A DNA stretch of 58,366 nt, the filler included, from Sphacelaria rigidula (lineage: Eukaryota), in NCBI GenBank assembly GCA_964200075.2. It is 6 parts of 6 records of this genome, joined end to end, with 100 filler letters (N's around TTAATTAATTAA, not from the genome) between each part and the next. Parts side by side here need not be neighbours in the genome. Positions count along the whole stretch, not along the records: positions 1 to 9,645 come from CAXNAA020008045.1; 5 more parts are not named here. The stretch is one strand, 5' to 3'. Under the pieces are notes generated by a model. It saw only the letters and a program-made list of their open reading frames with translations. It was not told where the DNA came from and did no database searches. Of this stretch, positions 2,870-48,724 are shown piece by piece (the stretch's first letter is position 1; each line of letters starts with the position of its first letter). The position numbers and the translations under genes were made by a program.

Positions 2870-4370
2870 GGAGCCCATGCATGTTCAGCTATAACCTGGG
2901 GCGTCCGCGGTGAAGATGAAGCCGCGGCGGTACGACCCGGTGAAGTCGAGCTGGTTGGCGTCGTGCATGGTGGCTCTTTTGGCGCTCGGGTTGGTGTTAC
3001 GGAACTTTCGAGCGGTGCGGTCCAGTCCAGCTATGGCGATTTCAAGAAAGGACTCGTTCCGCCTGGCAAGCGACTACAACGCCGTGAATGAGCAGGTTGA
3101 GAAGTCGCCGGGTGTGATGCCCGACCAAGAGTCGGACATGCTTGATCTGCTGAGTGCTCGTTTTTTGGCAAGTTGGACCTCCTGCAAGGTTACTGGCAGG
3201 TGCCGTTGGCGGAGGAGACGCAGAAGATTTTCGCCATCACGACTTCCTTTGGCTTGTTTATCCCGAAGCGAATGCCGCAAGGTGTGCTGAATGCCGCGGC
3301 ATATTTCCAAGGTATCAAGGCAGAACTTCTCGTCGGCTTAACATGAAATATATGGGTGGATGATCAGTTTTTTTTCGCGGACACGGAAGACGAGCTTTTA
3401 GACACGCTTGATGCTATCGTGGCTCGTTTAGAGAGTGTTGGCTTGTTTGCGGCTGCGCACAAGTGTACCTTTTTCGCTAGTGAGCTCGTGCGGTGTAGGA
3501 AGTGACTCACTCGGGCGCGTATCTCATGACCCTGTCAGAATGCAAGGCTTGTTTGATATGCGGCGCCCGGAGACGGCCGCAGAACTCATGCAATTCCTTC
3601 AGGCCGTGAACTGGACGCGTACCTTGTTGCCGCGTATGGCGGAAATCGTAGCTCCCCCTCGCGTTTTTTCCTCGTAGAACTCATGGCGGGTGCTGCGAGG
3701 CGGACGAAGCTTGTGGAAAAAAAACGCGCTATTCCGCCTGCATCTTGGACGGAGGGCAGGCTGGAGACGTGAGCGGCAGCGAAGGATTTAGTGGCCCATG
3801 CCGAGACGCTTTTCCATCCCCGTCCTGATTGTCAGTTCTTGATGTTTCCGAACGCTTCTGAGAGCCATTGGGACAGTTTTGTCACGCAGGTGCCTGAAGT
3901 TGAAATGAAACGACGCTTGCCGGTCGAGGATATGACGCATGAAGTGCTGGCTTTCTTCAGTGGTAGTTTCCAGGGTTCGCAGTTCCGTTGGGCCACAATT
4001 GACAAGGAAGGTTTTACTATCGTGAGCACTTTTCTTCCTTTGGAGAATCGTTTGTGGGATGGCGTGCACATTTCCACAGATCACCGACATCTCGTGTATA
4101 TTTTCAACCCGGAAGCGTGCGTTACGTCTGTGTCGAAGGCGTTTGCACAACATTTGGAGGCTTGAAAAGGTGTTCTTGGCAGTATCGTTACTCGATTTGC
4201 CACTTGTCAGGTGACCGTAAGGCGTGGGGTGACTTGCTTTCGCGTTGGGTGAATATTCCGGCGTTGCCTGTGCGCGCTTTGGCTGTGTATGGTCCGAATG
4301 AACCTGATGACTCGATGCCGTCCAAATCTGTTGTCCACCAAGCACAGCGGCAAGATATTGGGGCCGAAGA
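2870..4370 (+). pseudogene. Gypsy reverse transcriptase and RNase H (multiple frameshifts and stops)
   Basis: FRLASDYNAVN, LDLLQGYWQVPL...MPQGVLNAAAYFQG, catalytic IWVDD at about 3350-3364, LMQFLQAVNW, RNase H WATIDKEGFTIV and TDHRHLVYIF. Truncated by a LINE at about 4370. Confidence 0.9.
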
Positions 4371-6399: not shown

Positions 6400-7119
6400 C
6401 CCTTAGAGCAGTAGACCTGATGAAATATTCGTACACGATGATCGACAGGGATGACTACTCGATTTTAGATGTGATGAAGTTCTGACAAAAAGTGTGGTTT
6501 GGGGTAGGTGAGCAGTGGACCCAGCTCGTCCAGAACGTGCTTTTGTCGAAATCGGCGCCTGCCGCGACGATTCGAAGTCTGCCAACGCACACTTTGCCTA
6601 GGGGAAACCATGCACCCTCCTCGCCCGAGGGTCTCGTGCGCCTCGGGTCGGGGTTAGTGTTAGGATTAGGCTTACTTTTAGTCTGTAACATTCGATGATG
6701 TTCCCCATCAACCATTATCTACGAACATTTCTTCAGGCCCCCTCCGTCAGACCGCGAGGGTAGGTCACCTGCTGAATCGGTATTGCTTTTCACTTGAAAA
6801 AAGTATGCGTGATCCAGATGGACTACCCGGATCGTACCGGTCGCCGTGGTGGCTCAGTTGGTAGCCTTGGATCCTTCTGACAGTTGGGTCGTGGGTTCAA
6901 ATCTCGTAGCGATCTGGGATTTTTTCTCACACCCACCATGCCCAACAGTGGAAAGCGACTATGTCGTGGGTACACAAATTCGACTTAATGGTTGACGAGG
7001 GAAAGGGACTGCTGACCCCCTCTCGCGATAAAAAAGGAAAGGCAAGCACCGCAGAAGGAAGATGAAGTACCAAAAACAAATGGGACGACAACACACACAC
7101 CCGAATCACGGTCTAAGGG
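6400..7119. mobile_element. piggyBac-like non-autonomous element, unit 1 of a tandem chain, carrying a SINE
   Basis: Begins ttga|CCCTTAGA and ends TCTAAGGG|caaa. Internal modules recur at 7124-7568 and 9405-9645. Confidence 0.6.
6834..7099 (+). mobile_element. tRNA-derived SINE with (CA)n tail
   Basis: A box TGGCTCAGTTGG, B box GGTTCAAATC, tail acaacacacacac and an approximate TSD acccggatc/acccgaatc. Related copies at 28671, 26080 and 47675. Confidence 0.75.
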
Positions 7120-7123
7120 CAAA

Positions 7124-7568
7124 CCCTTTGACCGCGAGGGTAGGTGACCTACTGAATCGGTACCAATATTCACTTGAAAAAAGTATGCGTGATCCAGATG
7201 GACTCTCCAGTGGACCTTACGAAATGTACATGAACAATGGTTGGTACTCAATTTTACTTGATTTCATAATGAAGAAAGTTCTGAGAACGTTTATGGTCTG
7301 GGGCAGGTGAGCAGTGGCGAGCAGTAGACCCAGCTCGCCCAGAACGTGTTTTGGCCCAAGATCGGCTGAAAGGCGTCGATTTGAGCTCTGGCAACGCACG
7401 TTTTGCTCAGGGAACACTTCGCACCCCCCCTGCTCAAGGGCTCTCGGTATGCCTTGGGTCGGGGTCAAGGTCAGCGTTAGGGTTGGCAGCATCTCTATAG
7501 TATCAACCATTGTTTACGTACATTTCCTCAGGTCCCCTCGATGGACTACCTGTACCGGGGTCAAAGGG
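7124..7568. mobile_element. piggyBac-like non-autonomous element, unit 2
   Basis: CCCTTTGACC ... GGTCAAAGGG|ttaa terminal inverted repeats. Confidence 0.65.
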
Positions 7569-7670: not shown

Positions 7671-8454
7671 TCAAGTTCCGGCTCGAATCTTTCCTTGGTC
7701 TGAGATTCGAAATATTGCTAACGACCATCGTACACCTGCACCCGCCACCTGGTCAACAACACGCCGTTCGTGTGTGCAACCATTTCATAATATGTAGCCC
7801 AACAACGGATCGAAAAATATTCGGAACCAATGAAAACCCAATCCTTGGGCTCCGGAGCGCAATTTTTTCTTCTATTAAAGGAAAAATTGACGGTGGTGAG
7901 CATTCACTTCTTAGGAAAGGTACCCGACCGGGAAGGTACCCTATCATTGTACAGAATAATCGGAATAACTTCGTGATTACGTGCCGGTTTCACGATTTCA
8001 CCTATTGGATGACTGTCGATAGAGTATGGTTGATTTGTTCGAAAATTTGCACAACAAGTACTTCAGCGATATCAAAATCTCTAATTCGAACAAGTGCACG
8101 TAGAAGATTCGTAGTCAGGTGGCATGAGCCTTGCACCTACTGTTGGGAACATACGCTGGGATGTCACTTCTGATCATCAAGGAGGCGGCCGATCGACGGA
8201 GGCTAGTTAACCATCGCTGGGCTACGTCCATCAGAATTCCTGAATGATCAGATTCCGTCAACGCCTCGGGAAGCATGATCCCTTCCTGCCTCCAGCTGTA
8301 AAATTTATCCCTTGTTCGACCACCAGGGTGGGCATTCTTGAAATGAAAATTGTGCCGAAGAAACAGAGGACCGACTCTCGGTGTGACACGTTCTCCATGT
8401 TCTTTCAAACAACAGCGGACGGATGCTGTAGGGCTTCCGGATATAACCATCCTT

Positions 8455-9216
8455 GGGCTACGTTTTAGAATGCTTGACATGATTTTACAAGTTTCGCTAC
8501 CCTTACCCTTAACCCTAAACCCGACCCAACGGGCACCGAGAACCCTTGGGCGAGGGCGGAACATGCATTCCCTAGGCAAAGTGCGGCATTGGTAGACCCT
8601 GTGACTATTTATAGGCAACCGATTAGACTACCGTACAGTCAGCGCTGACTGTACGGTAGTCTAATCGGTTGCCTATAAATAGTCACAAAATTTAGTCGCT
8701 GGTTCGATTCCCGTCGGGCGCACTTTATTTGAAGAAGAAGAAGAAGACCTACCTCCGGTAAAAAGAGGGTGATGGGGGAGGGTCCAATCCCCGAGTTGAC
8801 TGCTAGGGACTCCAGTGCACACACTCTGAGAATGAATGGGGGAGACGAGTAACTCCGAATGGATACGTGTGGCAACATTAGACCGATACCGTGAGGGCGA
8901 ACAGTTGAACAGCGCTCGCAAGGGAAGTCGCCCTCCTCGGAGTGAAAGTGACGGGGATCGAACCCCCACGACTAACTTTTGCGACGATTTATAGACAACC
9001 GATTAGACTCCCGTACAGTCAGCGCTGACTGTACGGTAGTCTAATCGGTTGCCTATAAATCGTCAGAACCCCAAATCGGCCCTGTGGCGCCGATCTCAAC
9101 GAATAACGCGTTCAGTACGCACACGGGGAGCACACGGGACCGTCAGCCACAATGAATTCCGCTCCTCGTGGTTCACACTCAATCCGTGAAATATCAACCA
9201 TTCTAAAACGTAGCCC
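8455..9216. mobile_element. MITE with GGGCTACGTTTTAGAATG TIRs (Harbinger-like ends), interrupted by a palindrome-capped insertion
   Basis: Inverted termini at 8455 and 9216 and an internal TAACCC-like tract. A partial inverted sister copy at about 9236-9392 lacks the insertion. TSD not clear. Confidence 0.65.
8600..9064. mobile_element. Insertion with palindromic termini and inward-facing tRNA-like A/B boxes
   Basis: Perfect 88-bp palindrome at 8600-8687 and a near-identical palindrome at 8983-9064. Each leads inward to a GGTTCGAT(T/C)CCC B-box. Confidence 0.7.
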
Positions 9217-9404
9217 GATGCCGGTAAACTCTACTGCACAGGCGCCGATTTGGGCTCCACCAAGGCCACACGTTCCCTGGGGAATGTGCGTTCCACCCTT
9301 GCCCGAGGGTTCTCGGTGTGCGTTGGGTTGGGGTCAGGGTTATAGGAGTAGCGATACTTGTGAAATCGCATCACCTATTCTCAAACGCAGCCTAACGACG
9401 GTTA

Positions 9405-9645
9405 ACCCTTAGACCGTGGTGCGGGTAGTCCATCTGGATCACGCATACTTTATTCGAGTGAAAATTGATGCCGATTCAGCAGGTGACCTACCCTCGCGGT
9501 CTAACGGAGGGGGCCTGAGGAAATGTACGTAAACAATGGTTGATACTATAGAGATGCTGCCAACCCTAACGCTGACCTTGACCCCGACCCAAGGCATACC
9601 GAGAGCCCTTGAGCAGGGGGGGTGCGAAGTGTTCCCTGCGCAAAA
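9405..9645. mobile_element. Truncated piggyBac-like non-autonomous element
   Basis: ttaa|CCCCTTAGACC start; 9510-9645 is a near-identical reverse complement of 7401-7537. Confidence 0.6.
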
Positions 9646-9745
9646 NNNNNNNNNNNNNNNNNNNNNNNNNNNNNNNNNNNNNNNNNNNNTTAATTAATTA
9701 ANNNNNNNNNNNNNNNNNNNNNNNNNNNNNNNNNNNNNNNNNNNN
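9646..9745. other. Artificial contig linker (N + TTAATTAATTAA + N)
   Basis: 100-bp spacer with stops in all six frames. Confidence 0.98.
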
Positions 9746-12949: not shown

Positions 12950-14162
12950 TGCACCCCATCCTCTCACGGGGTCACGAAGCTACAAACACACCAAAGTATT
13001 CGTCCGACATTCACCTTGAGCATACGAATGGGTGCTGGAATACATCTTTGAGTTCCGCAGTGATGCGCAACTGCGAGTCAGCATAGAAACGCATACGAGC
13101 GATATGGGCTGGGTATACGGCCAGAAACAATGTCCTGCACCGAGGACACGTGAGCGTGATTGGATCTGACCACTCGCCACGGACCTGTCCATGTATACAT
13201 CAACTTTGGCGTCACACCTTGCCTACGGACACGGGCATACAAACACGAAATCGCCGACTGAAAACTTGGGCAACACAGCTTGGTCCTTAGCAAGCTTGCG
13301 TTTGGTTTCGCGAGACACCGCGACAGCAGCTTGCACTTCGTTACAAAACCGCACTTGCTCGTCAACCATGCCTCGAACCTTGCCATGCAACGAATCAGCA
13401 TCCATGACACATCGACGTTCCACCCGCCGCCAGTGATAGAAGCCAGCGCGGGAAACGCGGTACGCGGCGCACGCACAAGTATTACACAATGCGGAGTGTT
13501 ACGATAGCGTTCACGAAAATAAGTATTCAACGCCCACTGAGCGGCTGGCAAAACATCAACCCATTCAGCCACCGGCCGTCTTTGTTTCGACAAAATGAAC
13601 CGCAACGCACGAATAACCTCTTTCACCATGCGTTCACATGTAACATTCGACCAAGGGGTATACGCAACAGTAGACTGATGTTGTACCTTGAGCGCGCTGC
13701 TCAGCTGCGCGATTACTTGATTCTTAAAGTGCGTGGCGATATCACTCACCCACACACGCGGCGCCCCCAAAGTCTTACACCAATGGAGCAAGTGCTTAGC
13801 CGTAACCTCGGCAGTGAAAGCCTCCGTCGGCTCCAAGCAAACGAAATTGGACAAATGATCCATGGTAACCAAAACGTACCGAAAACCATCCTCCTCAGGC
13901 AAACCATTAGCACCTCCAGGTCTGCTACTTCCGACGTACAGAACACCAAAGTGAACAACTTCACCTGGCGCTGCACCATGCACGGTATTGCCATACAGAT
14001 GAGGTACAATCTCACCAGCACGAGTGTGTACTCAATGCAAACACTGGCGAACGAACTCACGAACGTGAGAATCCATGTGAGGCAACACACGGTATTCTTT
14101 CGAACGAAACAGAGTCGGCGCCACACCACGATGACCAGCCGATCGCATGTGAGCGCACACCA
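12950..14162 (-). pseudogene. Gypsy integrase (HHCC zinc finger and rve core), decayed
   Basis: AHMRSAGHRG...REFVRQCL, then YVLVTMDHLSNF, APRVWVSDIATHFKN and AYTPWSNVTCERMVKEV (DDE core), and KLMYTWTGPWRVV (GPY/F motif). Confidence 0.9.
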
Positions 14163-19390: not shown

Positions 19391-19490
19391 NNNNNNNNNN
19401 NNNNNNNNNNNNNNNNNNNNNNNNNNNNNNNNNNTTAATTAATTAANNNNNNNNNNNNNNNNNNNNNNNNNNNNNNNNNNNNNNNNNNNN
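19391..19490. other. Artificial contig linker
   Basis: N + TTAATTAATTAA + N, 100 bp. Confidence 0.98.
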
Positions 19491-26260: not shown

Positions 26261-28670
26261 GCAGCCATTGAGTTGCATACACAACGCCTTTGTTTCCGTG
26301 AGCACAGCTTGACCCCACGTTTGTTTCCTGTTTCACTTGCTTCCATCAGCCTCGAGGGATACCGATCCTCAATCTAACATTTTCGTGTGTTTAGGACAAG
26401 GAAGCGCGATTGCACAACCGAGTCGTGTATAGTACAGGGGGTTTATAAATCTCGATCATCATCTTGAATGTTTTTGCAGACATTTTTGTTTTTCACGTAT
26501 GCATTGCGCTAGAGCTGCAATCACGTTTTTAGAATAAAAAACGATCACACGCTCCGTCGATTCTTGTACCTGAAAAAACATTTACATTTATTTGGAACTT
26601 TCTCGTATAACAACGCTTTCGTGAGATTGAGAGTAGAGCATTGATTGAGAGTGGCCTTGAACGCTTTAGAGTTATCGTACAGGCTGGTTCACGGTGATCA
26701 CCCAAAATTGTGTAATCGGCAAATAATGCCTTCCGCAATACGCACCCAATAGTCGCATATATGGTATTATACTGACCGCAATGAAGAGACGAAGAGGGTG
26801 ACATAGTCGGAGTTTTGTTTAAGGCCCTAGCGGTGGGGCTATGGACGAAATTTTGTCTCAGTCAATCAGCGCCCTTCAAACTGTTCTGAGATCTAAATGA
26901 CGAATACCAAGCCCAATTTTCACCCAATCTCTACCTGCTTCAAATCGTAGTAACAATCATTGAAACGGAAATCTAACGAGATAATCATATTTTTTAAGCG
27001 GTTACTATGGGGGTCGAATTATACCCGAAACCGTGATGTTTCGGTGATGTCGGATGTTGGCGTCGTCTAACTTCCACTAATGATACGCGCGAAAGACCCA
27101 GGCAGTCTCGTGACGGTGTCCCCTATATCTGTGGCAGAAAATCTCAGATCGCCCTCAAACTCGGCAGTTCCGTAGGTATTCATGCTCAAAATGGAAAAAA
27201 TGTATTCTTGACAATATATAATGTTTTCTCCGTTCTCTACCGGCTTCCGGGGGTCCCAGCATGAAGACCCCCGGAAGGCGATACAGAATGCCCTAAAAGA
27301 AAAATAATGAAATTATGCGTCCCGGGAGAGTCCAAGGAACACATATACAAAGTTTGGTGGAGAAACTCGAAAAACTCATACAGTTTGTCTTGCCTTGACG
27401 TCAAATTCACCCAAAAAGACGTTTCCATTCTACACCAAGCAGTTGGGAGTTGCACGCTTCAAGCCCACGTCCTCCACAAACGCGCAAAATTTCACGCTGT
27501 CAGTAGGAGTTAGATCCTGAAACTTCGCATAAATATGCTATCTATCAGTACGCAACTTTCTACGGACGATGGTTTTTGTACTTCTTGAGTTTTTCACCGT
27601 TATTCGAGGGTCCGACGGGATCAAAGTCGTTTTTCGAAGTAGTCTCCATTTTGGGATCCCGGAAAAACGGCACTACGATATTTTTCTTCATTTTTTCGCG
27701 AACTATCTACCTCCACACAACCCAAGGATGGGCTCCACAATTTTTCGCCGCAATGATCGATCAACTGATGCTTGAATTCCCATGTTCACGTCAAAGAAGG
27801 CCCGAAAACGCCGTTTTGGTACTAAAATCAAGTAGTTTGCGGTTTCACCGCGGTACGGCAAACTTCATCGCACAAAGGCCAAAACCTTCACGCCGTTTTG
27901 AAGAGTTAGACCCTGAAATTTTGCACAACTGTGCTTTGGGACATTACACATCTTTGCTGGAACGTTTGTTTTTTTTGTTACCGTTTTACGGGAGTCCGAT
28001 TGGGTCAAGGTTTCCCCCCCCGAAACCTGGAAACCCCGAAAAACGGTGAAAAAGGTAAAATATTCAAGTAAATAAAAAACGTTCCTGCAAAGGTGCGTAA
28101 TGACCCATAGAACATTCGTGCAAAATATCAGGGTCTCCTTAAAACCGCGTGAGGTTTGCCGATGAATGTTTTTGGGGTGATGAGCGTGAACCAGCCTGTA
28201 CGATGGGGGGAGAGGTAGGCATTTGATTGCACGGAAAAATAGGCTCAGATATGTGTCAGACGACCTGCCACACTCGCGGTGCCCTTGTATTTTGTTGTAA
28301 ACGATGTCACGCAGAATGGAGAGCGGTTTATGTAAATTAATATATACATACCATATGAAACGAACTCGTCCGAGCAACTGTCGCTGCTTTCGACGACGAT
28401 TTGACTTGGAATTTCGCGCTGACTTCCCCCCCCCCCCCCCCCCAATCATGGAAAGACTCTTTAACGTAGCCATTTTCCCCTTCTGTGTGTGCTTTTCTTT
28501 GCCCTCATCATTCGCGTGTGCTTACAGCTATACGTCGATATCCTTCTCAGGGATAGTAGTAAGTTTTTTACAGAAAGCATATCGGGCAACTGGGAGAGGC
28601 ATTTTCGGAACTGAAACGATTCATTCACTTCCGCTCATATTATTGAATATATGTTTTTTAGACAGAGCTG

Positions 28671-29000
28671 GTCGCCCCGGTGGCTCAGTTGATAACTTCG
28701 AAACGTTCTGACGGTTGAGTTATGGGTTCAAATCTAGGAGCGACATGGGATTTTTTCTCACACAATGCCCAACAGTGGAGCGTGGGTAAACGAAATTCAA
28801 CTTAACGGTCGACAAGGGAAATGCATTGCTTACCTCCTCTCGCGATAAAAAATAAAAGCAAGCACCGCAGAACGAAGGTGGAGAACCGGAAACAAACAAG
28901 AAAGAAAGAAAACTCCTGTGTTGACCTTCCTCCTGTGTGACCCCAGCTGGTGCGCCCACATATACCGAAAGGTGCAGGGTGACAAAATGGCCCCGTGTCA
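28671..29000 (+). mobile_element. tRNA-derived SINE
   Basis: TGGCTCAGTTG A box, GGTTCAAATC B box and a body matching 6834-7099. Confidence 0.7.
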
Positions 29001-29135: not shown

Positions 29136-29235
29136 NNNNNNNNNNNNNNNNNNNNNNNNNNNNNNNNNNNNNNNNNNNNTTAATTAATTAANNNNNNNNN
29201 NNNNNNNNNNNNNNNNNNNNNNNNNNNNNNNNNNN
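29136..29235. other. Artificial contig linker
   Basis: N + TTAATTAATTAA + N, 100 bp. Confidence 0.98.
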
Positions 29236-31175: not shown

Positions 31176-32051
31176 ATACGCCAATGGGGTCGAAGCTGGG
31201 TCGGAGTCAGTATCTTTTCGTTCACCTTTTCAATTCTTCTTAGTTATTTTTCCTGATTTCTCCAAGTCTGGACTTTTAGTCTAAAATATATATTTCTGGA
31301 GCACCAGGCATATAAATTCAGAGTTGCTCCCAACAATACCAACCATTTGTTCGGCGACCAGAGAACAAAAAAAGCAGGGGTGCTTTGTGCTTTCGTACTG
31401 CAGCGCGCGCGTGCCCACCGAGTGAAACCATGAAGAGCCCTTGAGAATAGAAAAATCGGAAAAAATACGCGTTGCTCAAAAACGAAAAAAGGAGGGAAAA
31501 AGCAGCAAAAAGAAAAAAGAGACAAGGATCCAAAGTGGTTTGTACGGCTGGGGTTGAACGCGCGACCTATTCCCTGCAGATTGTTCACATCTATCTCTGG
31601 CCTTCGGAGGTATTGTGACGTTGACTGACTTCGGCAATTTATTTTGCTCTCCTCTGCAATGATAAGGGGCAATGTATTTTGCGCGGTAGTTTTTCGATGG
31701 TGGTAAGAAGCCACAGCAATGTCAGTATCTACACGGCAATTGTTTGAACGGAAATGGGAGAATCTGATTTGCTCGGGAGTTTGGATGGGAACGGGAGAAC
31801 GTAATTATTTGAAAACGGTTGGGATGGTAATAACATTCCCGATTTACCATGGTAACGTACCATGTGCCAAGTACCGTGGTTGTACAGAGGTAACTCCCAC
31901 GTGGGAAAATTACCGAAGGGAGCTTTTTTTATTTTTTATTTGCCATCTTCGGCTCGAACAATAACATTTATTATCAAACCGTCATCTATCTCCGTTCCTC
32001 TTTCCCTGTTTATTGTTTGTTTCCCCTTTTCCTCGTTGTCTTGAATTGAAG

Positions 32052-32279
32052 TTGTTCACAGAGAAGTATACTTCGAGAGTGACGTACCGACGGCCTACCG
32101 AAGTGGCCGTGAAAGCAGTGCACTCGCGATTGTTTTCGTCATTAGACAGCACGTGGCGATTTCGGCCTGGAAAGGACCCCAATACCACATTTGTGGACTT
32201 CTCGGTGGAGTTTGAAGTGAAGAATATGCTGGCGGCGCAGGCTATGGATGCTTTCTTCGACGAAGTGGCTTTGCAACAG
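32052..32279 (+). CDS. COQ10: Internal exon of a coenzyme Q-binding protein (START/polyketide cyclase domain)
   Basis: 228-nt phase-0 exon bounded by AG and GT, encoding LFTEKYTSRVT...SRLFSSLDSTWRFRPG...VDFSVEFEVKN...AFFDEVALQQ. This matches my recollection of COQ10 (ERYTS..LF..LET.WRF..LDFSISFEF..FFDEV). Other exons were not found on this contig. Confidence 0.85.
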
Positions 32280-32284
32280 GTGAC

Positions 32285-32323
<39 letters not shown>

Positions 32324-33059
32324 TTTTCTCAACCGGCGAAGTGTAGGAGTGGCGTTTGGGTGTCTTTGGCGATGTCTTTGTTTACATGTGTGATGATTAG
32401 TTGTTAGCGGTGTCTTGAGGTGGTAACGTATCCTCTTTATGTTTCGGCTCGTTGTTTCGTGTCTTTACTGTTGTTTTGATGGGTTTTTCAATGGTGGCTC
32501 AGATCATGGTCGTGCGTCATGGTGTTGCCTGGTGTTGCCTTATACTTCACGAAGCATTGTCTCGCGTTTTCCTACGTTTGTCTTCATGCCTGTTATTGTT
32601 TCAGATCATCTCATGCGTCTACTACTATTTTCTATATATTGTTGTGTTTTCCCTTGTTGTTGTTGTTGTTGTTGTTTTAGCGGTTTTGCACGCACATTCG
32701 CCCAATCTCTCGAACCCGCGGTCACAGACGTAGGCTCGCCTTTCCAGTAGCAGTCACTACTATTCCGCAGATGAGATTGAAGTGCTCATGGGGCTGTTTT
32801 GTCTCAGACTCCGAGAAAACAAACAGACAAAAATTAACACCAAAGAGAGGGACGTCAAGAAAATAGAAGAGAAAAATCCTCCCCCTCCCGAATTGGGCGG
32901 GATTTGGTGGAACCAGTACATCAGATCTGCCAACACAGGAAAGGAACTAAATAGATACCAAGCGCGAGAGTTGAGCAATACCCCGGTACCCACGAAGAGG
33001 CAAGGATAAGTAGAGTTTCTAGGAAGCAGGCGCATTAACGAGTACGTGATGGGCTACCT

Positions 33060-35230: not shown

Positions 35231-35328
35231 CCCTTAGACCGCGAGTTTAGTCTTGTGTTGAATCGGCATCAATTTCAAGTGAAAAAAAGTATGCATGGTC
35301 CAGAAAGACTAATCTCGCGGTCTAAGGT
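35231..35328. mobile_element. 98-bp piggyBac-like MITE with intact TTAA TSDs
   Basis: ttaa|CCCTTAGACCGCGAG ... CTCGCGGTCTAAGGT|ttaa. Confidence 0.85.
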
Positions 35329-38880: not shown

Positions 38881-38980
38881 NNNNNNNNNNNNNNNNNNNN
38901 NNNNNNNNNNNNNNNNNNNNNNNNTTAATTAATTAANNNNNNNNNNNNNNNNNNNNNNNNNNNNNNNNNNNNNNNNNNNN
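38881..38980. other. Artificial contig linker
   Basis: N + TTAATTAATTAA + N, 100 bp. Confidence 0.98.
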
Positions 38981-39618: not shown

Positions 39619-40062
39619 ACGAGCAACGACTCGAGTGCTCGCCCTCTTCATTTTTTCCACAACGAGCAATGACTCGTGTGCTCGCCCTATTCATTTTTTC
39701 CACAACGAGCAACGACTCGAGTGCTCGCCCTATTCATTTGTTTCCACAACGAGCAATGGCTCGTGTGCTCGCCCTATTCATTTGTTTCCACAACGAGCAA
39801 TGACTCGAGTGCTCACCCTGTTCATTTGTTTCCACAACGAGCAATGACTCGAGTGCTCGCCCTATATATATTGTTTCCCCAACCAGCAATGACTCGGGTG
39901 CTCGCCCTATTCATTTGTTTCCCCAACGAGCAATGACTCGAGTGCTCGCCCTATTCGATTTTTTCCCCCACGAGCAATGACTCGAGTGCTCGCCCTATCC
40001 ACTTTCCCCCCAACGAGCAATGACTCGAGTGCTCGCCCTATTATTCTTACGGCCAACGAGCA
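39619..40062. repeat. Minisatellite: 10 copies of a 42-45-bp unit with an internal hairpin
   Basis: Consensus AACGAGCAATGACTCGAGTGCTCGCCCTATTCATTTGTTTCCAC; stem CGAGCA/TGCTCG. Confidence 0.95.
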
Positions 40063-41254
40063 GCCCAACGAGTACGAGTGCCACGAGTCACACTCGTGCT
40101 CGTCCGACGTATGCAAGTGTCGTCTCGACCTTGAGCACACCCACCAATGAATTCCGACCAAAATCTCTTGAGAACGAACGTGGTCTCAACCCCTGTCTAC
40201 ACCAGGGGTTGGCGTGGGGCCTTCTGCATAATAGAATCGCATATATTTTTCGGAAACGCCGACGACCAGGGTATCAGAGTTTTTTCAAAGCTATCTCGCT
40301 ATATGGATGATTTTGCCCGAATTAATGGAGCCGAAGCCCCTTCAGTTCCTTCGCCGTCCGGATCTCTAGTCGCACGCTAAATGAACGAACGTTCTGAGCG
40401 GGTCCGGAATAGTTCTTTCTCAGTAGAAGGAGCCATTGTCACGCATGTGCCGCGCGTTAGAGGGCTGTTCATACAAAGGCCGCAATCAGTAAAACCATTA
40501 TTACCGTTTCAGATTGCCATTTCAGCATAACAACCCGGGATGGGGAAAAATATATGTGGTCATGCATGTACAGTACGAAGGTTTCGGCATCCAGCAGCAC
40601 AATAATGCGTGAAGCGGCAAAAAGTACATCAGCCTCCGGCAACCATGGCGAAAAGCTGCTTTACGTCTATGTATCCAGGCCGGGCGGTGGGTAATCCAAA
40701 GCGTTGGGCGCTGAAATTTTAATACAACATGTTTTCATCATCGCTACGCACAACCTTCCCGGGGATGCTGAGAAAAAGAAAAAAACAGGAAGTTAAAGCG
40801 ATTTGAAGCTTCTGCAGGAACAAAACAAATGCTATAACCCCGTGAAAAACAAGAAATACGGGGGCATCCCTAGTGTAGTTGTGCGACCTTGTGTGGAGGA
40901 GATGCTGGTGTGATTTCGGCCAAAAAATCCAGAAAAATGGCGCAGCATCCAACTTTTCGTGTGGCACGCACGGCTGCGCTCCTTTCATCCAAGTGATGCA
41001 CTTGACTCCAGCTATGGAGGTCACGGGTTCGAATCCCGACGGATTACTTTTTTTTCTTCCGTCGATTAGATAATACATGATACATTATGCAGCATATATA
41101 TTTTTTCATTCAGCGGCGGTCCTGTGCGTTACCACGTTGGTCTGCAGGTCACACCGATATACTCAAGTCGGGCTGATTTGGTAAACTTGATAAGTTATGG
41201 TGTGACATGCAAATTCAGGATTTACTGCTGGCCCAGCTCGTACATTACCGTCAC

Positions 41255-41308
41255 ATATATATATATATATATACACACACACATATATATATATACATAT
41301 ATATATAT
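41255..41308. repeat. (AT)n/(AC)n microsatellite
   Basis: Direct reading. Confidence 0.9.
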
Positions 41309-42950
41309 TTAACATTTTCCATGACACAGATCACCATGATACACCAACGACTAAAGTCCACATGAGGTCACCTTCGAACAAAATCCCCGATTCCCCAAGG
41401 TCTGATACCGTACCGTAAGTGTCCGAATTGAGGAAGTCATGTCGGAGAAGACCAGGGCGATGTTATGTCGTGCCTGCCGTGTATATAACGTAGCCGCTGA
41501 TGAGACATCCCTGTTTCAGACAAGGCTCAAGGCCATCTCATGAAGATGTCCATGAGCACAATTTCTCGTATGAACCATTTTCCATAATACCGCCATCGTT
41601 GCATTCGGAGATTCATCCGACCTATGTGCCCAACTTCATAGCAACGTCAAAGTCAGGCCTTGACTATGCACGTGATTCGGGCCTTGATTATACTCATGCA
41701 AACTAGAGGCATCTAGCGGGAATCGAACCCGCTTTTTTCCCGACCTCATGGTATAGTTGTACTATTTTACTTTAGGCCACCGGGGTGTGTCGGCCACGGA
41801 GGTTGTATCATTCCCACTATGCTGTACCTCTCGGAAAGCAGGCATAATCTAATGAGGCGGTTCAAGTCCACGGAACGTTCGGAAGCGGCGCCCTTTCCAT
41901 CCTGCTTGTCGAGGGTTGACTACCCTGCTTCAAGTGCCCGAAGCCGTCTATTTCCTGACCAGAAGTCATCACCCACGTCATTATTAGCCAGTAGAAATGT
42001 ATTGATGCACTGTATGCATCTGTGCGAGCAAACCCTTTGTCAGCCAGCTACGCCTTCTACTTGCCATGTTTTATTCTCTCTACAAAAACTCCATTTGGTC
42101 ATCGTCGTGGAGTCTGCAGGCAATTAGGCGATGAAAAGGTCAACGACGTCGTGTCTCGCGAACGACGACCGAGCCAAGCGCACGGGACCAAAGTATAAAT
42201 AAACCCCGATCTGATCTCCCACAGCCAATCGCATTCAAGCTATTCGACCCGCGGTACAACGGGAAGAAGGGGAGGCAAGTTTCTACTGTCGCCCGTCCCT
42301 AACCAACACTCGCGTTCCGTCCCCACGAGGGTAGCACTTCAACAAAGAAACCGGATTTCCCGTTGGCCCAGTTCTCACTTACGGGCAATACCCAAGCGCG
42401 ATCGATTGGGGATATTGAAATGTAAACTTCAAGTTCATATTTCTTGACTTTTTATCGACGGGCGCGTAGCGTAGTCGACCCTGGATCGTGGAGGGTGGGT
42501 TGCTCCCTTCCAAAAGTGTTGCTTCGCTTTCTCGTTACATGTCCATGTACCGAGGAAGAAATGTCATGTTGTCTAGCAGTATAGACCATGTGAAGGGAAG
42601 TGGTGGGAGATACATACGGTCGAAAAGTATCACGAAGTACGTACTGTAATACGCATGAGCGAACACACAGCAAACAATCACCGCCTGTTGCAGTACACTG
42701 GATTTCTGCTCGGCAACTTGGAAGATAGTGAAGGAAACCCCGGCCCTATCAAGATCGTCAACTAGCCAAACCCCCGTCCCCCGTAACGTGCTGACGTGGC
42801 ATACTTGAGAACCGCGTTGGACTGAACTGCACTGGAACGCTGTGCCACGAGCTATACAACAGTAACATTTCGAGTGGAAAAGTCTGCACATCGCTGCTAA
42901 CAAATATCACCGCGATTAATTACACAACAATGGAATGATGACCCCAACAG

Positions 42951-48624: not shown

Positions 48625-48724
48625 NNNNNNNNNNNNNNNNNNNNNNNNNNNNNNNNNNNNNNNNNNNNTTAATTAATTAANNNNNNNNNNNNNNNNNNNN
48701 NNNNNNNNNNNNNNNNNNNNNNNN
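48625..48724. other. Artificial contig linker
   Basis: N + TTAATTAATTAA + N, 100 bp. Confidence 0.98.

Follow-up and report, generated by a model that had tools for sequence, protein, structure and literature searches.

A 468-nt insertion in the brown alga Sphacelaria rigidula whose palindromic ends derive from tRNA-like SINE heads: a possible foldback-type DNA element

A TGTNR terminal pattern and 4-bp target duplications have been reported for Ginger1, Ginger2 and the ends of Gypsy long terminal repeat (LTR) elements, with CCGG/CCGT as the target of Ginger1 and the AT-rich RTATAY as that of Ginger2 (PMC2836005). For the transposable elements (TEs) of a brown alga, a curated table lists a non-autonomous element of 502 bp, marked 'possible Ginger?', that ends in TGTTG-CAACA and has a duplication of 5 bp, as well as a Gypsy family with a 4-bp duplication; three families (4782 copies) of Chlamys-group Penelope-like elements (PLEs) are also reported, and the accessible parts of this Ectocarpus TE survey report no short interspersed element (SINE) of the RNA polymerase III (Pol III) type (PMC12477816). 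In PLE insertions, an inverted 5'-truncated copy beside the 5' end gives rise to inverted repeats around the whole unit, and a tail of 30-40 bp, optional at either end, has been described along with partial tandems, a bias toward microsatellites and non-autonomous derivatives (PMC8557442). Palindromes at inverted junctions have been read as a sign of self-priming, and unrelated DNA was found captured between terminal repeats with a target duplication (PMC3846280), while a PLE protein, when purified, cuts the two strands of the target, extends them and initiates reverse transcription within a stem-loop (PMC11167929). Here we describe a 468-nt unit at positions 8600-9067 of a 58,366-nt stretch of Sphacelaria rigidula DNA (assembly GCA_964200075.2; the whole stretch is called the window), in which SINE-like modules lie between two palindromic ends.

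The unit resembles several of these systems and departs from each. [quoted passage not shown] Unlike them, it has terminal repeats that are loopless palindromes, perfect on the left, made from a tRNA-like SINE head, an interior of SINE modules, and a target, ACCC, that differs from those of Ginger. With PLE insertions it shares the bracketing by inverted repeats, a palindrome exactly at the inverted junction, a short end extension of fixed length, a duplication around the complex, hints of tandems and a microsatellite, whereas the 5' heads of the unit, and not 3' ends, face outward, its modules carry Pol III-type boxes, and neither a hammerhead nor any other Rfam match was found in 8400-9300. 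As in tRNA-derived SINEs, a B-box and an A-box-like motif stand at the usual spacing, a T-run ends the right module, and the sequence is abundant and modular; however, the unit has two facing heads, an internal (GAA)5, no tail beside the duplication, and 44-nt inverted copies outside each head. Finally, parvovirus-type inverted terminal repeats and hairpin telomeres also have palindromic, mutually inverted ends resembling those of the unit. Unlike hairpin-ended genomes, the unit is integrated, only 468 nt long, non-coding and flanked by a target duplication, with no Rep or resolvase in the window.

Among the titles and opening lines of abstracts searched, we found no description of tRNA-derived elements with palindromic caps. 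We read the unit as a SINE-derived, foldback-type, non-autonomous element that moved as one piece of DNA, and we give this reading a probability of roughly 0.4. The original prediction for this locus had set it apart from both a standard SINE and a simple TIR MITE, which is a fair description, as neither end carries a tail and each terminal repeat is itself a palindrome.

A single insertion with palindromic ends

The bounds of the unit are set by the two copies of a 4-bp target duplication, ACCC, that stand immediately outside it and bracket all 468 nt (Table 1). It interrupts a host repeat, and a sister copy of this repeat, which is found with the unit in the first of the six pieces of ~9645 nt that make up the window (adjoining pieces are not necessarily neighbours in the genome), is uninterrupted. 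The left flank (8444-8599) aligns to the sister copy at 9404-9253 on the reverse strand, and the right flank (9070-9086) aligns to 9254-9237, directly adjoining the left-flank match, so that the predicted insertion into a repeat with an intact sister copy was confirmed. A second uninterrupted copy is present in the window at ~7340-7539. Additionally, contigs of four public sequencing runs were aligned to 8300-9400 at 85% likeness, and X1, X2 and X3 contigs were found in which 8599 is joined to 9080/9081 with 9-14 letters between them, as in empty copies of the host repeat. Both boundaries of the insert lie exactly 44 nt from a palindrome centre. The unit ends in TGTGA on the left and, on the reverse strand, in TCTGA on the right; the left palindrome has TCACA at its inner boundary, and no simple-repeat or A-rich tail is present at either outer end. 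The unit entered the host repeat as one clean insertion.

The host repeat itself is short and contains a degenerate telomere-like motif (CCCTAA-type), and its copies, which lie in both orientations, number at least four over 2.3 kb (7340-7539, 8444-8599 plus 9068-9086, 9237-9404, and 9507-9645). The stretches 7401-7539 and 9507-9645 are 99% complementary, and the portion of the repeat at 9299-9335 has a very high summed depth in the run contigs. Another interspersed short repeat, which starts with GACCGCGAGGGTAGG, was seen around the unit, at 6750-6824, 7130-7204, 9427-9507 (minus strand) and 35236-35310; the spacing of its two direct copies, 380 nt, equals that of the palindromes, which is probably a coincidence.

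As predicted, the left palindrome is perfect and loopless (44+44), with its centre between CAGC and GCTG. The same palindrome is found at 8983-9064 (41+41) with the predicted two mismatches, and it extends further than was first described, to 8980-9067, with mismatches at 4 of 44 arm positions at this full length. The two palindromes are 93% alike over 89 nt in both direct and inverted orientation, and the inverted arms of the whole unit extend over 97 nt (8602-8698 and 8969-9065) with 94% complementarity. A 23-mer from the arm has four occurrences against 0.00 expected, the RNA hairpin energies are -75.4 kcal/mol for the left palindrome (z -19) and -60.5 kcal/mol for the right one (z -13), and the single-stranded DNA fold of the whole unit reaches -135 kcal/mol (z -16). 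The palindromic structure is not a product of chance. Symmetry of the whole unit was considered and rejected, since beyond the 97-nt arms only the B-box stretch aligns, with a score of 13 compared with a shuffle mean of 8.7 and a shuffle maximum of 15. In Rfam, the palindromes gave only sub-threshold matches to microRNA-like hairpins (one at 30.8 bits, where the gathering score is 84, and others like it), and a microRNA identity was rejected because such matches are those of a generic hairpin.

The word TATAAAT is present in all four arms, at 8607-8613 and 8987-8993 on the minus strand and at 8674-8680 and 9054-9060 on the plus strand, in each case 31-37 nt from the palindrome centre. The outer-arm copies are positioned as an upstream Pol III or Pol II element would be for a start at the centre. 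In the consensus of the contigs, the word is apparently absent from the common variant of the family.

Perfect palindromes are a known product of chimeric long reads, and none of the listed contigs spans a whole palindrome or the whole unit, which would be compatible with a fold-back artefact of assembly. However, the absence of a spanning contig is uninformative, because the run contigs were assembled from 31-letter words, which cannot cross a longer perfect palindrome. The palindromes are 88 nt long and stand symmetrically at the ends of an insertion with a duplicated site in otherwise collinear host sequence. Moreover, an X2 contig (record 14) covers 9042-9229 with two differences and crosses the junction between the right outer arm and the flank, and an X5 contig (record 27), covering 8613-8738, reaches 31 nt beyond the left centre. 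An assembly artefact is thus extremely unlikely.

Comparison of the four arms showed that each palindrome consists of the first 44 nt of a module head and an inverted copy of those 44 nt. The likeness of the two heads to each other is 93% inside the palindromes and drops sharply, with insertions and deletions, over the next 40 nt. The left outer and left inner arms are identical. At arm position 38 both of them have A, whereas both right arms and most contigs of the family have C (8681 A>C). Because the left arms share this derived base, either one of them was copied from the other after the change at position 38 or both were made from one template. Private changes were found in the right arms, three in the inner and one in the outer arm.

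These arm comparisons bear on two other explanations of the palindromes. In the first, the 88-bp palindromes would be direct terminal repeats of a miniature LTR-type retroelement, similar to a terminal-repeat retrotransposon in miniature (TRIM), which was integrated by an integrase of the retroviral type after reverse transcription. The terminal repeats are indeed also direct repeats (89 nt, 93% alike), the left repeat has the form TG...CA (the right one TG...GA), the duplication is 4 bp long where 4-6 bp would be expected, the size of the unit falls in the TRIM range, and relics of LTR elements lie in the same piece of the window. However, LTR replication predicts that the left outer arm equals the right inner arm and that the left inner arm equals the right outer arm, and these pairs differ at 4 and 2 positions, compared with 0 for the left outer and left inner arms. 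In addition, the sequence beside the left repeat is tRNA-sense, rather than complementary to the 3' end of a tRNA, and there is no primer-binding site on either strand, and no purine tract precedes the far repeat, so that we regard a TRIM-like origin as very unlikely. The LTR relics were found at 994-1827 and 3773-4162 (gag zinc knuckle and RNase H; piece 1) and at 13081-14031 (integrase core; piece 2); their matches are near or below the Pfam cut-offs, and their frames are broken.

In the second explanation, the unit would be a hairpin-ended replicon or transposon whose palindromes are regenerated by a rolling-hairpin HUH enzyme or a telomere resolvase, and ends of the protelomerase or tyrosine-recombinase type had been suggested originally. 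Each end is palindromic and repeats the other in inverted orientation, the four arms stop at one and the same base, and the derived transversion shared by the arms of the left palindrome shows that one arm was copied from the other. This copying is the one hint in favour of hairpin resolution. Arm-to-arm gene conversion, however, explains the shared base without a special enzyme, no open reading frame (ORF) for a Rep protein, resolvase or recombinase is present in the window, and the 4-bp duplication and the TGTGA ends point to a staggered cut of the DDE type. The heads in other contigs also end at the palindrome centre, where they join other sequences. A hairpin-ended origin is therefore very improbable.

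tRNA-like heads and an abundant modular interior

The inner arm of each palindrome is the start of a tRNA-like head (Table 1). A B-box inward of each palindrome, which had been predicted, was found in both heads (8701-8712 on the plus strand and 8964-8953 on the minus strand); the B-boxes face inward, and their match is perfect in both cases, while the A-box-like motif is approximate. In the whole window, the B-box motif was found five times compared with 0.55 expected. An A-box-like word had been predicted for each inner arm, and this was correct for the left one only: the exact word, TAGTCTAATCGG, is present in the left inner, left outer and right outer arms, whereas the right inner arm has GAGTCTAATCGG instead, with G for the first T of the word.

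Tools for tRNA detection gave little. Rfam returned no tRNA match up to E 10 on 901 nt or 105 nt, and ARAGORN did not call the heads at its default or 90% thresholds. At 80-85% it called 8650-8721 (plus strand), and it called 8942-9029 (minus strand) only at -ps80, and the 85% setting yields 12 calls in the 58-kb window. The RNA of the heads folds no better than shuffled sequences (z -1.0 and +0.2). The stretch comprising the variable loop and T-arm is nearly identical to that of real bacterial tRNA genes matched by a pattern scan, and for this reason a tRNA origin of the heads is credible, with a 5' half that has degenerated. Overall, the inward-facing Pol III-like promoters that had been predicted are supported by the B-box and A-box-like motifs, from which the label is drawn, but not by Rfam, and by ARAGORN only at 80-85%. 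Were the boxes to function as they do in tRNA genes, transcription would begin close to the palindrome centres. On the plus strand, the first T4 lies at 8977-8980, and the first T-run on the minus strand is a T5 at 8764-8760.

Two other sets of tRNA-like sequences are present in the window. An ordinary tRNA-like SINE family is represented by 6839-6932 and 28670-28763 (continuing to ~7041 and 28967), which are 82% alike; this family combines a far better A-box (TGGCTCAGTTGG) with a B-box and a T6 run and lacks a 5' palindrome, in contrast to the unit. Also, a second facing pair of B-box-bearing tRNA-like relics was found at 40954-41047 (plus strand) and ~41700-41790 (minus strand), ~690 nt apart. 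The first of them is followed by T8 and was called as tRNA-Trp by ARAGORN only at the 85% threshold, and the pair (40954-41790) has no palindromes and no inverted arms longer than 32 nt.

The ~250-bp core between the palindromes had been described as unique. It is unique within the window, where no second copy of the unit was detected by blastn (word size 7), but in the contigs of the four runs the summed word depth, which is not a copy number, is ~1e5 to 1e6 over 8670-8743, 8781-8854 and 8892-9002, compared with 3e2 to 1e4 in the flanks and 2e3 to 8e4 in the palindrome arms. The summed depth of the interior is thus 100 to 1000 times that of the flanks, as measured in contigs and not in raw reads, and contigs nearly identical to the flanks have depths of 17 (X1 record 5) and 21 (X2 record 14). 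At 8633-8669 and 9003-9039, the depth is 7 to 70 times below that of the neighbouring inner bins. The majority by depth differs from the window at 8681, 8691, 8718, 8727, 8811, 8829, 8830, 8836, 8917, 8925, 8982 and 8987. Many contigs also diverge from the window at set positions (before 8682, behind 8736, before 8793 and before 8911), and the letters beyond these positions agree among contigs. To judge from these alignments, the interior belongs to a very abundant tRNA-derived, SINE-like family that is modular and has several sub-families. Upstream of 8682, the common form of the family has a head start that is related but clearly different, and the 44-nt arm sequence of the unit therefore represents a rarer head variant. 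In total, 17 public runs contain matching words, none of them containing half of the words or more; no RNA run is among the 17, and the set carries no information on expression.

The interior consists of two facing modules that meet at the (GAA)5 microsatellite, and 25-32 contigs per run depart at 8736. Shortly inward of the B-boxes, the inverted symmetry gives way to an asymmetric body. X1, X2 and X3 contigs (records 7, 12 and 20) that match 8760/61-8916/8962 lose homology at 8760/61, just past the minus-strand T5 in the RNA direction, and this fits a minus-strand module that runs from 9023 to 8760 with its head at the 5' end. The order of left head, GAA run and right-module end is also that of one X3 contig (record 19; 8641-8787, 86% alike), so that the join of the two modules is not confined to this locus. 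In other joints, the head start ends at 8639-8643 beside other sequences, one contig starts at 8641, and backward joints run from 9007 to 8760, from 8973 to 8682 and from 8981 to 8686. These joints, which occur in short contigs, hint at head-to-tail copies and at heads without an outer arm elsewhere. The two ORFs of at least 100 amino acids in the unit (8642-8971 and 8676-9002) matched 0 Pfam families.

This modular structure raises the question of whether two ordinary SINEs, each with a snap-back palindrome at its 5' end, were inserted independently and tail to tail, with one SINE landing in the microsatellite tail of the other. The modules do occur separately in other contigs, where homology ends at 8682, 8736, 8760/61, 8793 and 8911, and they differ from each other beyond the first 44 nt. 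At 8731-8745, a purine run on one strand is matched by a pyrimidine run on the other, and the left palindrome, with 0 mismatches, looks younger than the right one, with 4. However, a single ACCC duplication surrounds all 468 nt, neither outer junction keeps a remnant of a tail, and no host sequence was lost. The two outer arms also terminate at the same 44th base, the rarer head variant is common to the two modules, and the two-module join recurs in the 86%-alike contig. Independent insertion is quite unlikely, because the second SINE would have had to land exactly at the boundary between tail and flank, leave no remnant and stop at the same 44th base. Insertion of the whole unit in the ordinary manner of a SINE driven by a long interspersed element (LINE) was also rejected, as there is no outer tail and one duplication surrounds two facing heads. 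The window contains no LINE ORF. L1-style twin priming was rejected by reasoning, since it would place the tails outside and the 5' ends in the centre, the reverse of what was observed.

Candidate modes of movement

In the reading that we prefer, the palindromes would go back to an earlier stage, when SINE heads underwent inverted duplication at their 5' ends, and the 468-bp non-coding unit would now move as DNA, as a foldback-type non-autonomous TIR element. A DDE enzyme of the integrase kind, acting in trans, would recognise the TGTGA ends and make a 4-bp staggered cut that duplicates ACCC. The A-box and B-box motifs would be an inheritance from the SINE that is not needed for movement, although the inherited boxes may still start Pol III transcripts near the palindrome centres. 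That the outer arms are part of what moves is argued by the two boundaries, each exactly 44 nt from a palindrome centre, and the target-site duplication argues for a staggered-cut integration. The unit has what a working definition of a non-autonomous TIR element asks for, namely, inverted ends of 97 nt, a target duplication (ACCC, seen in one copy of the element) and no coding capacity. The TGTNR terminus is present at 8600 (TGTGA), and the right end is one change away from it. The SINE-derived fold-back element proposed originally is therefore upheld in its anatomy, that is, in the interior of SINE modules, the palindromes derived from heads and the single insertion, while movement as DNA, the class of the enzyme and any transcription are what we infer.

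Several observations weigh against movement as DNA. No second full copy with both palindromes was found in the window or in the public collections scanned. The head-variant pattern had 0 matches in metagenome contigs, a looser head pattern had two matches in the public collections, both of them bacterial tRNA genes, and there were 0 matches to four patterns in viral contigs and 0 to two patterns in contigs of prokaryote genomes. No transposase or integrase partner with these ends is present in the window, where the only rve ORF (13081-14031) belongs to an LTR-element relic. The target ACCC fits Ginger in its 4-bp length but is neither CCGG-like nor AT-rich, and the right end, TCAGA, is one change from TCACA. 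Furthermore, movement as DNA gives no reason for the head in other copies to have its 5' limit at the palindrome centre, the derived base shared by the left arms requires an added step of arm-to-arm conversion, and the modular, very abundant interior looks more like that of a retroposon than that of a typical MITE.

Two of these difficulties would disappear if the unit were a complex retro-insertion, made in one event by a self-priming, template-jumping reverse transcriptase (RT), for which a PLE enzyme is the candidate, because reverse transcription with snap-back or template jumps gives both the 5' limit of the head at the centre and the shared base of the left arms. The palindromes would then mark the places where SINE RNAs formed snap-back or partial-tandem junctions at their 5' ends, the outer arms would correspond to the fixed-length tail of PLE insertions, and the nuclease would cut both target strands, with the RT extending both. 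The published anatomy of PLE insertions is the closest match that we found: an inverted 5' copy, a palindrome at the junction and a surrounding duplication are all present in the unit. The palindrome centre coincides with the head 5' limit in other contigs, the backward joints suggest head-to-tail tandems, (GAA)5 stands at the inner junction, and a shared derived base in the left palindrome is expected from copying at birth. However, priming on both strands predicts outward 3' ends, and the tRNA-like 5' heads were seen to face outward instead; that these are 5' ends also fits the minus-strand T5 at 8764-8760, where contig homology ends. Two equal outer arms of 44 nt would need a deterministic stop that is unexplained, the hammerhead motif of canonical PLE clades is missing from 8400-9300, and the 126 ORFs of the 58-kb window, to which Pfam families were assigned, include no RT or GIY-YIG family. 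The accessible portions of the published accounts do not describe the tails as inverted copies of the adjoining sequence. On balance, we consider a PLE-type retro-insertion, the main alternative to movement as DNA, unlikely, although with an appreciable chance of being correct.

A related and improbable alternative is that the unit copies itself from two facing Pol III transcripts. Each inward promoter would start a transcript at a palindrome centre, and each transcript, after crossing the unit, would finish in the 88-nt hairpin on the far side. A dimeric RT-nuclease, able to cut the two target strands and extend them in the way reported for a Penelope-like protein, would prime on both RNAs. 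The two complementary DNAs would then pair along the 380 nt that they share, each filling in the ends of the other, so that both outer arms, including the untranscribed upstream half of the promoter, would be rebuilt. If this were true, the palindrome would allow a Pol III-driven element to carry its own upstream sequence, which an ordinary SINE loses.

Features of the window and implications

The coordinates of the unit and of its surroundings are collected in Table 1.

Table 1. Parts of the palindrome-ended unit and of the interrupted host repeat, in window positions
Feature	Position	Strand	Remarks
Left target-site duplication copy (ACCC)	8596-8599		Direct read
Right target-site duplication copy (ACCC)	9068-9071		Direct read and sister-copy alignment
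Interrupted host repeat	Left part 8444-8599, right part 9068-9086	+	Alignment to sister copy
Left terminal palindrome	8600-8687		Outer arm 8600-8643, inner arm 8644-8687; starts TGTGA, ends TCACA
Right terminal palindrome	8980-9067		Inner arm 8980-9023, outer arm 9024-9067; starts TGCGA, ends TCAGA
Left tRNA-like head (credible)	8644-8729	+	A-box-like 8657-8668, B-box from 8701, then TTTATTT
Right tRNA-like head (credible)	8938-9023	-	B-box from 8964, A-box-like variant GAGTCTAATCGG
(GAA)5 microsatellite	8731-8745	+	Junction of two facing modules
Asymmetric body of right-hand module	8746-8940	-	No inverted symmetry; T5 at 8764-8760

Elsewhere in the window, the pieces are separated by spacers at 9646-9745, 19391-19490, 29136-29235, 38881-38980 and 48625-48724, each composed of 44 N, TTAATTAATTAA and 44 N. 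A tandem array of ~nine units with a period of 44-45 nt is present at 39644-40048, and an ORF at 31965-32390 (plus strand) has a Pfam match to Polyketide_cyc (START-like; E 2e-9) and may be an exon from a host gene.

As a rule, SINEs are discussed apart from DNA transposons, and in this locus SINE heads form the palindromic ends of an insertion that arrived in one piece. Palindromes of this kind break short-read assemblies and confuse the annotation of repeats. In the alga itself, perfect 44-bp hairpins beside likely Pol III starts could feed small-RNA pathways. If the pattern holds throughout the family, then parts of SINEs would have been recruited as the terminal repeats of a DNA element, or, alternatively, a Pol III-driven element would have been shaped by self-priming chemistry of the Penelope type in an alga, a group of organisms in which elements of that sort have barely been described.

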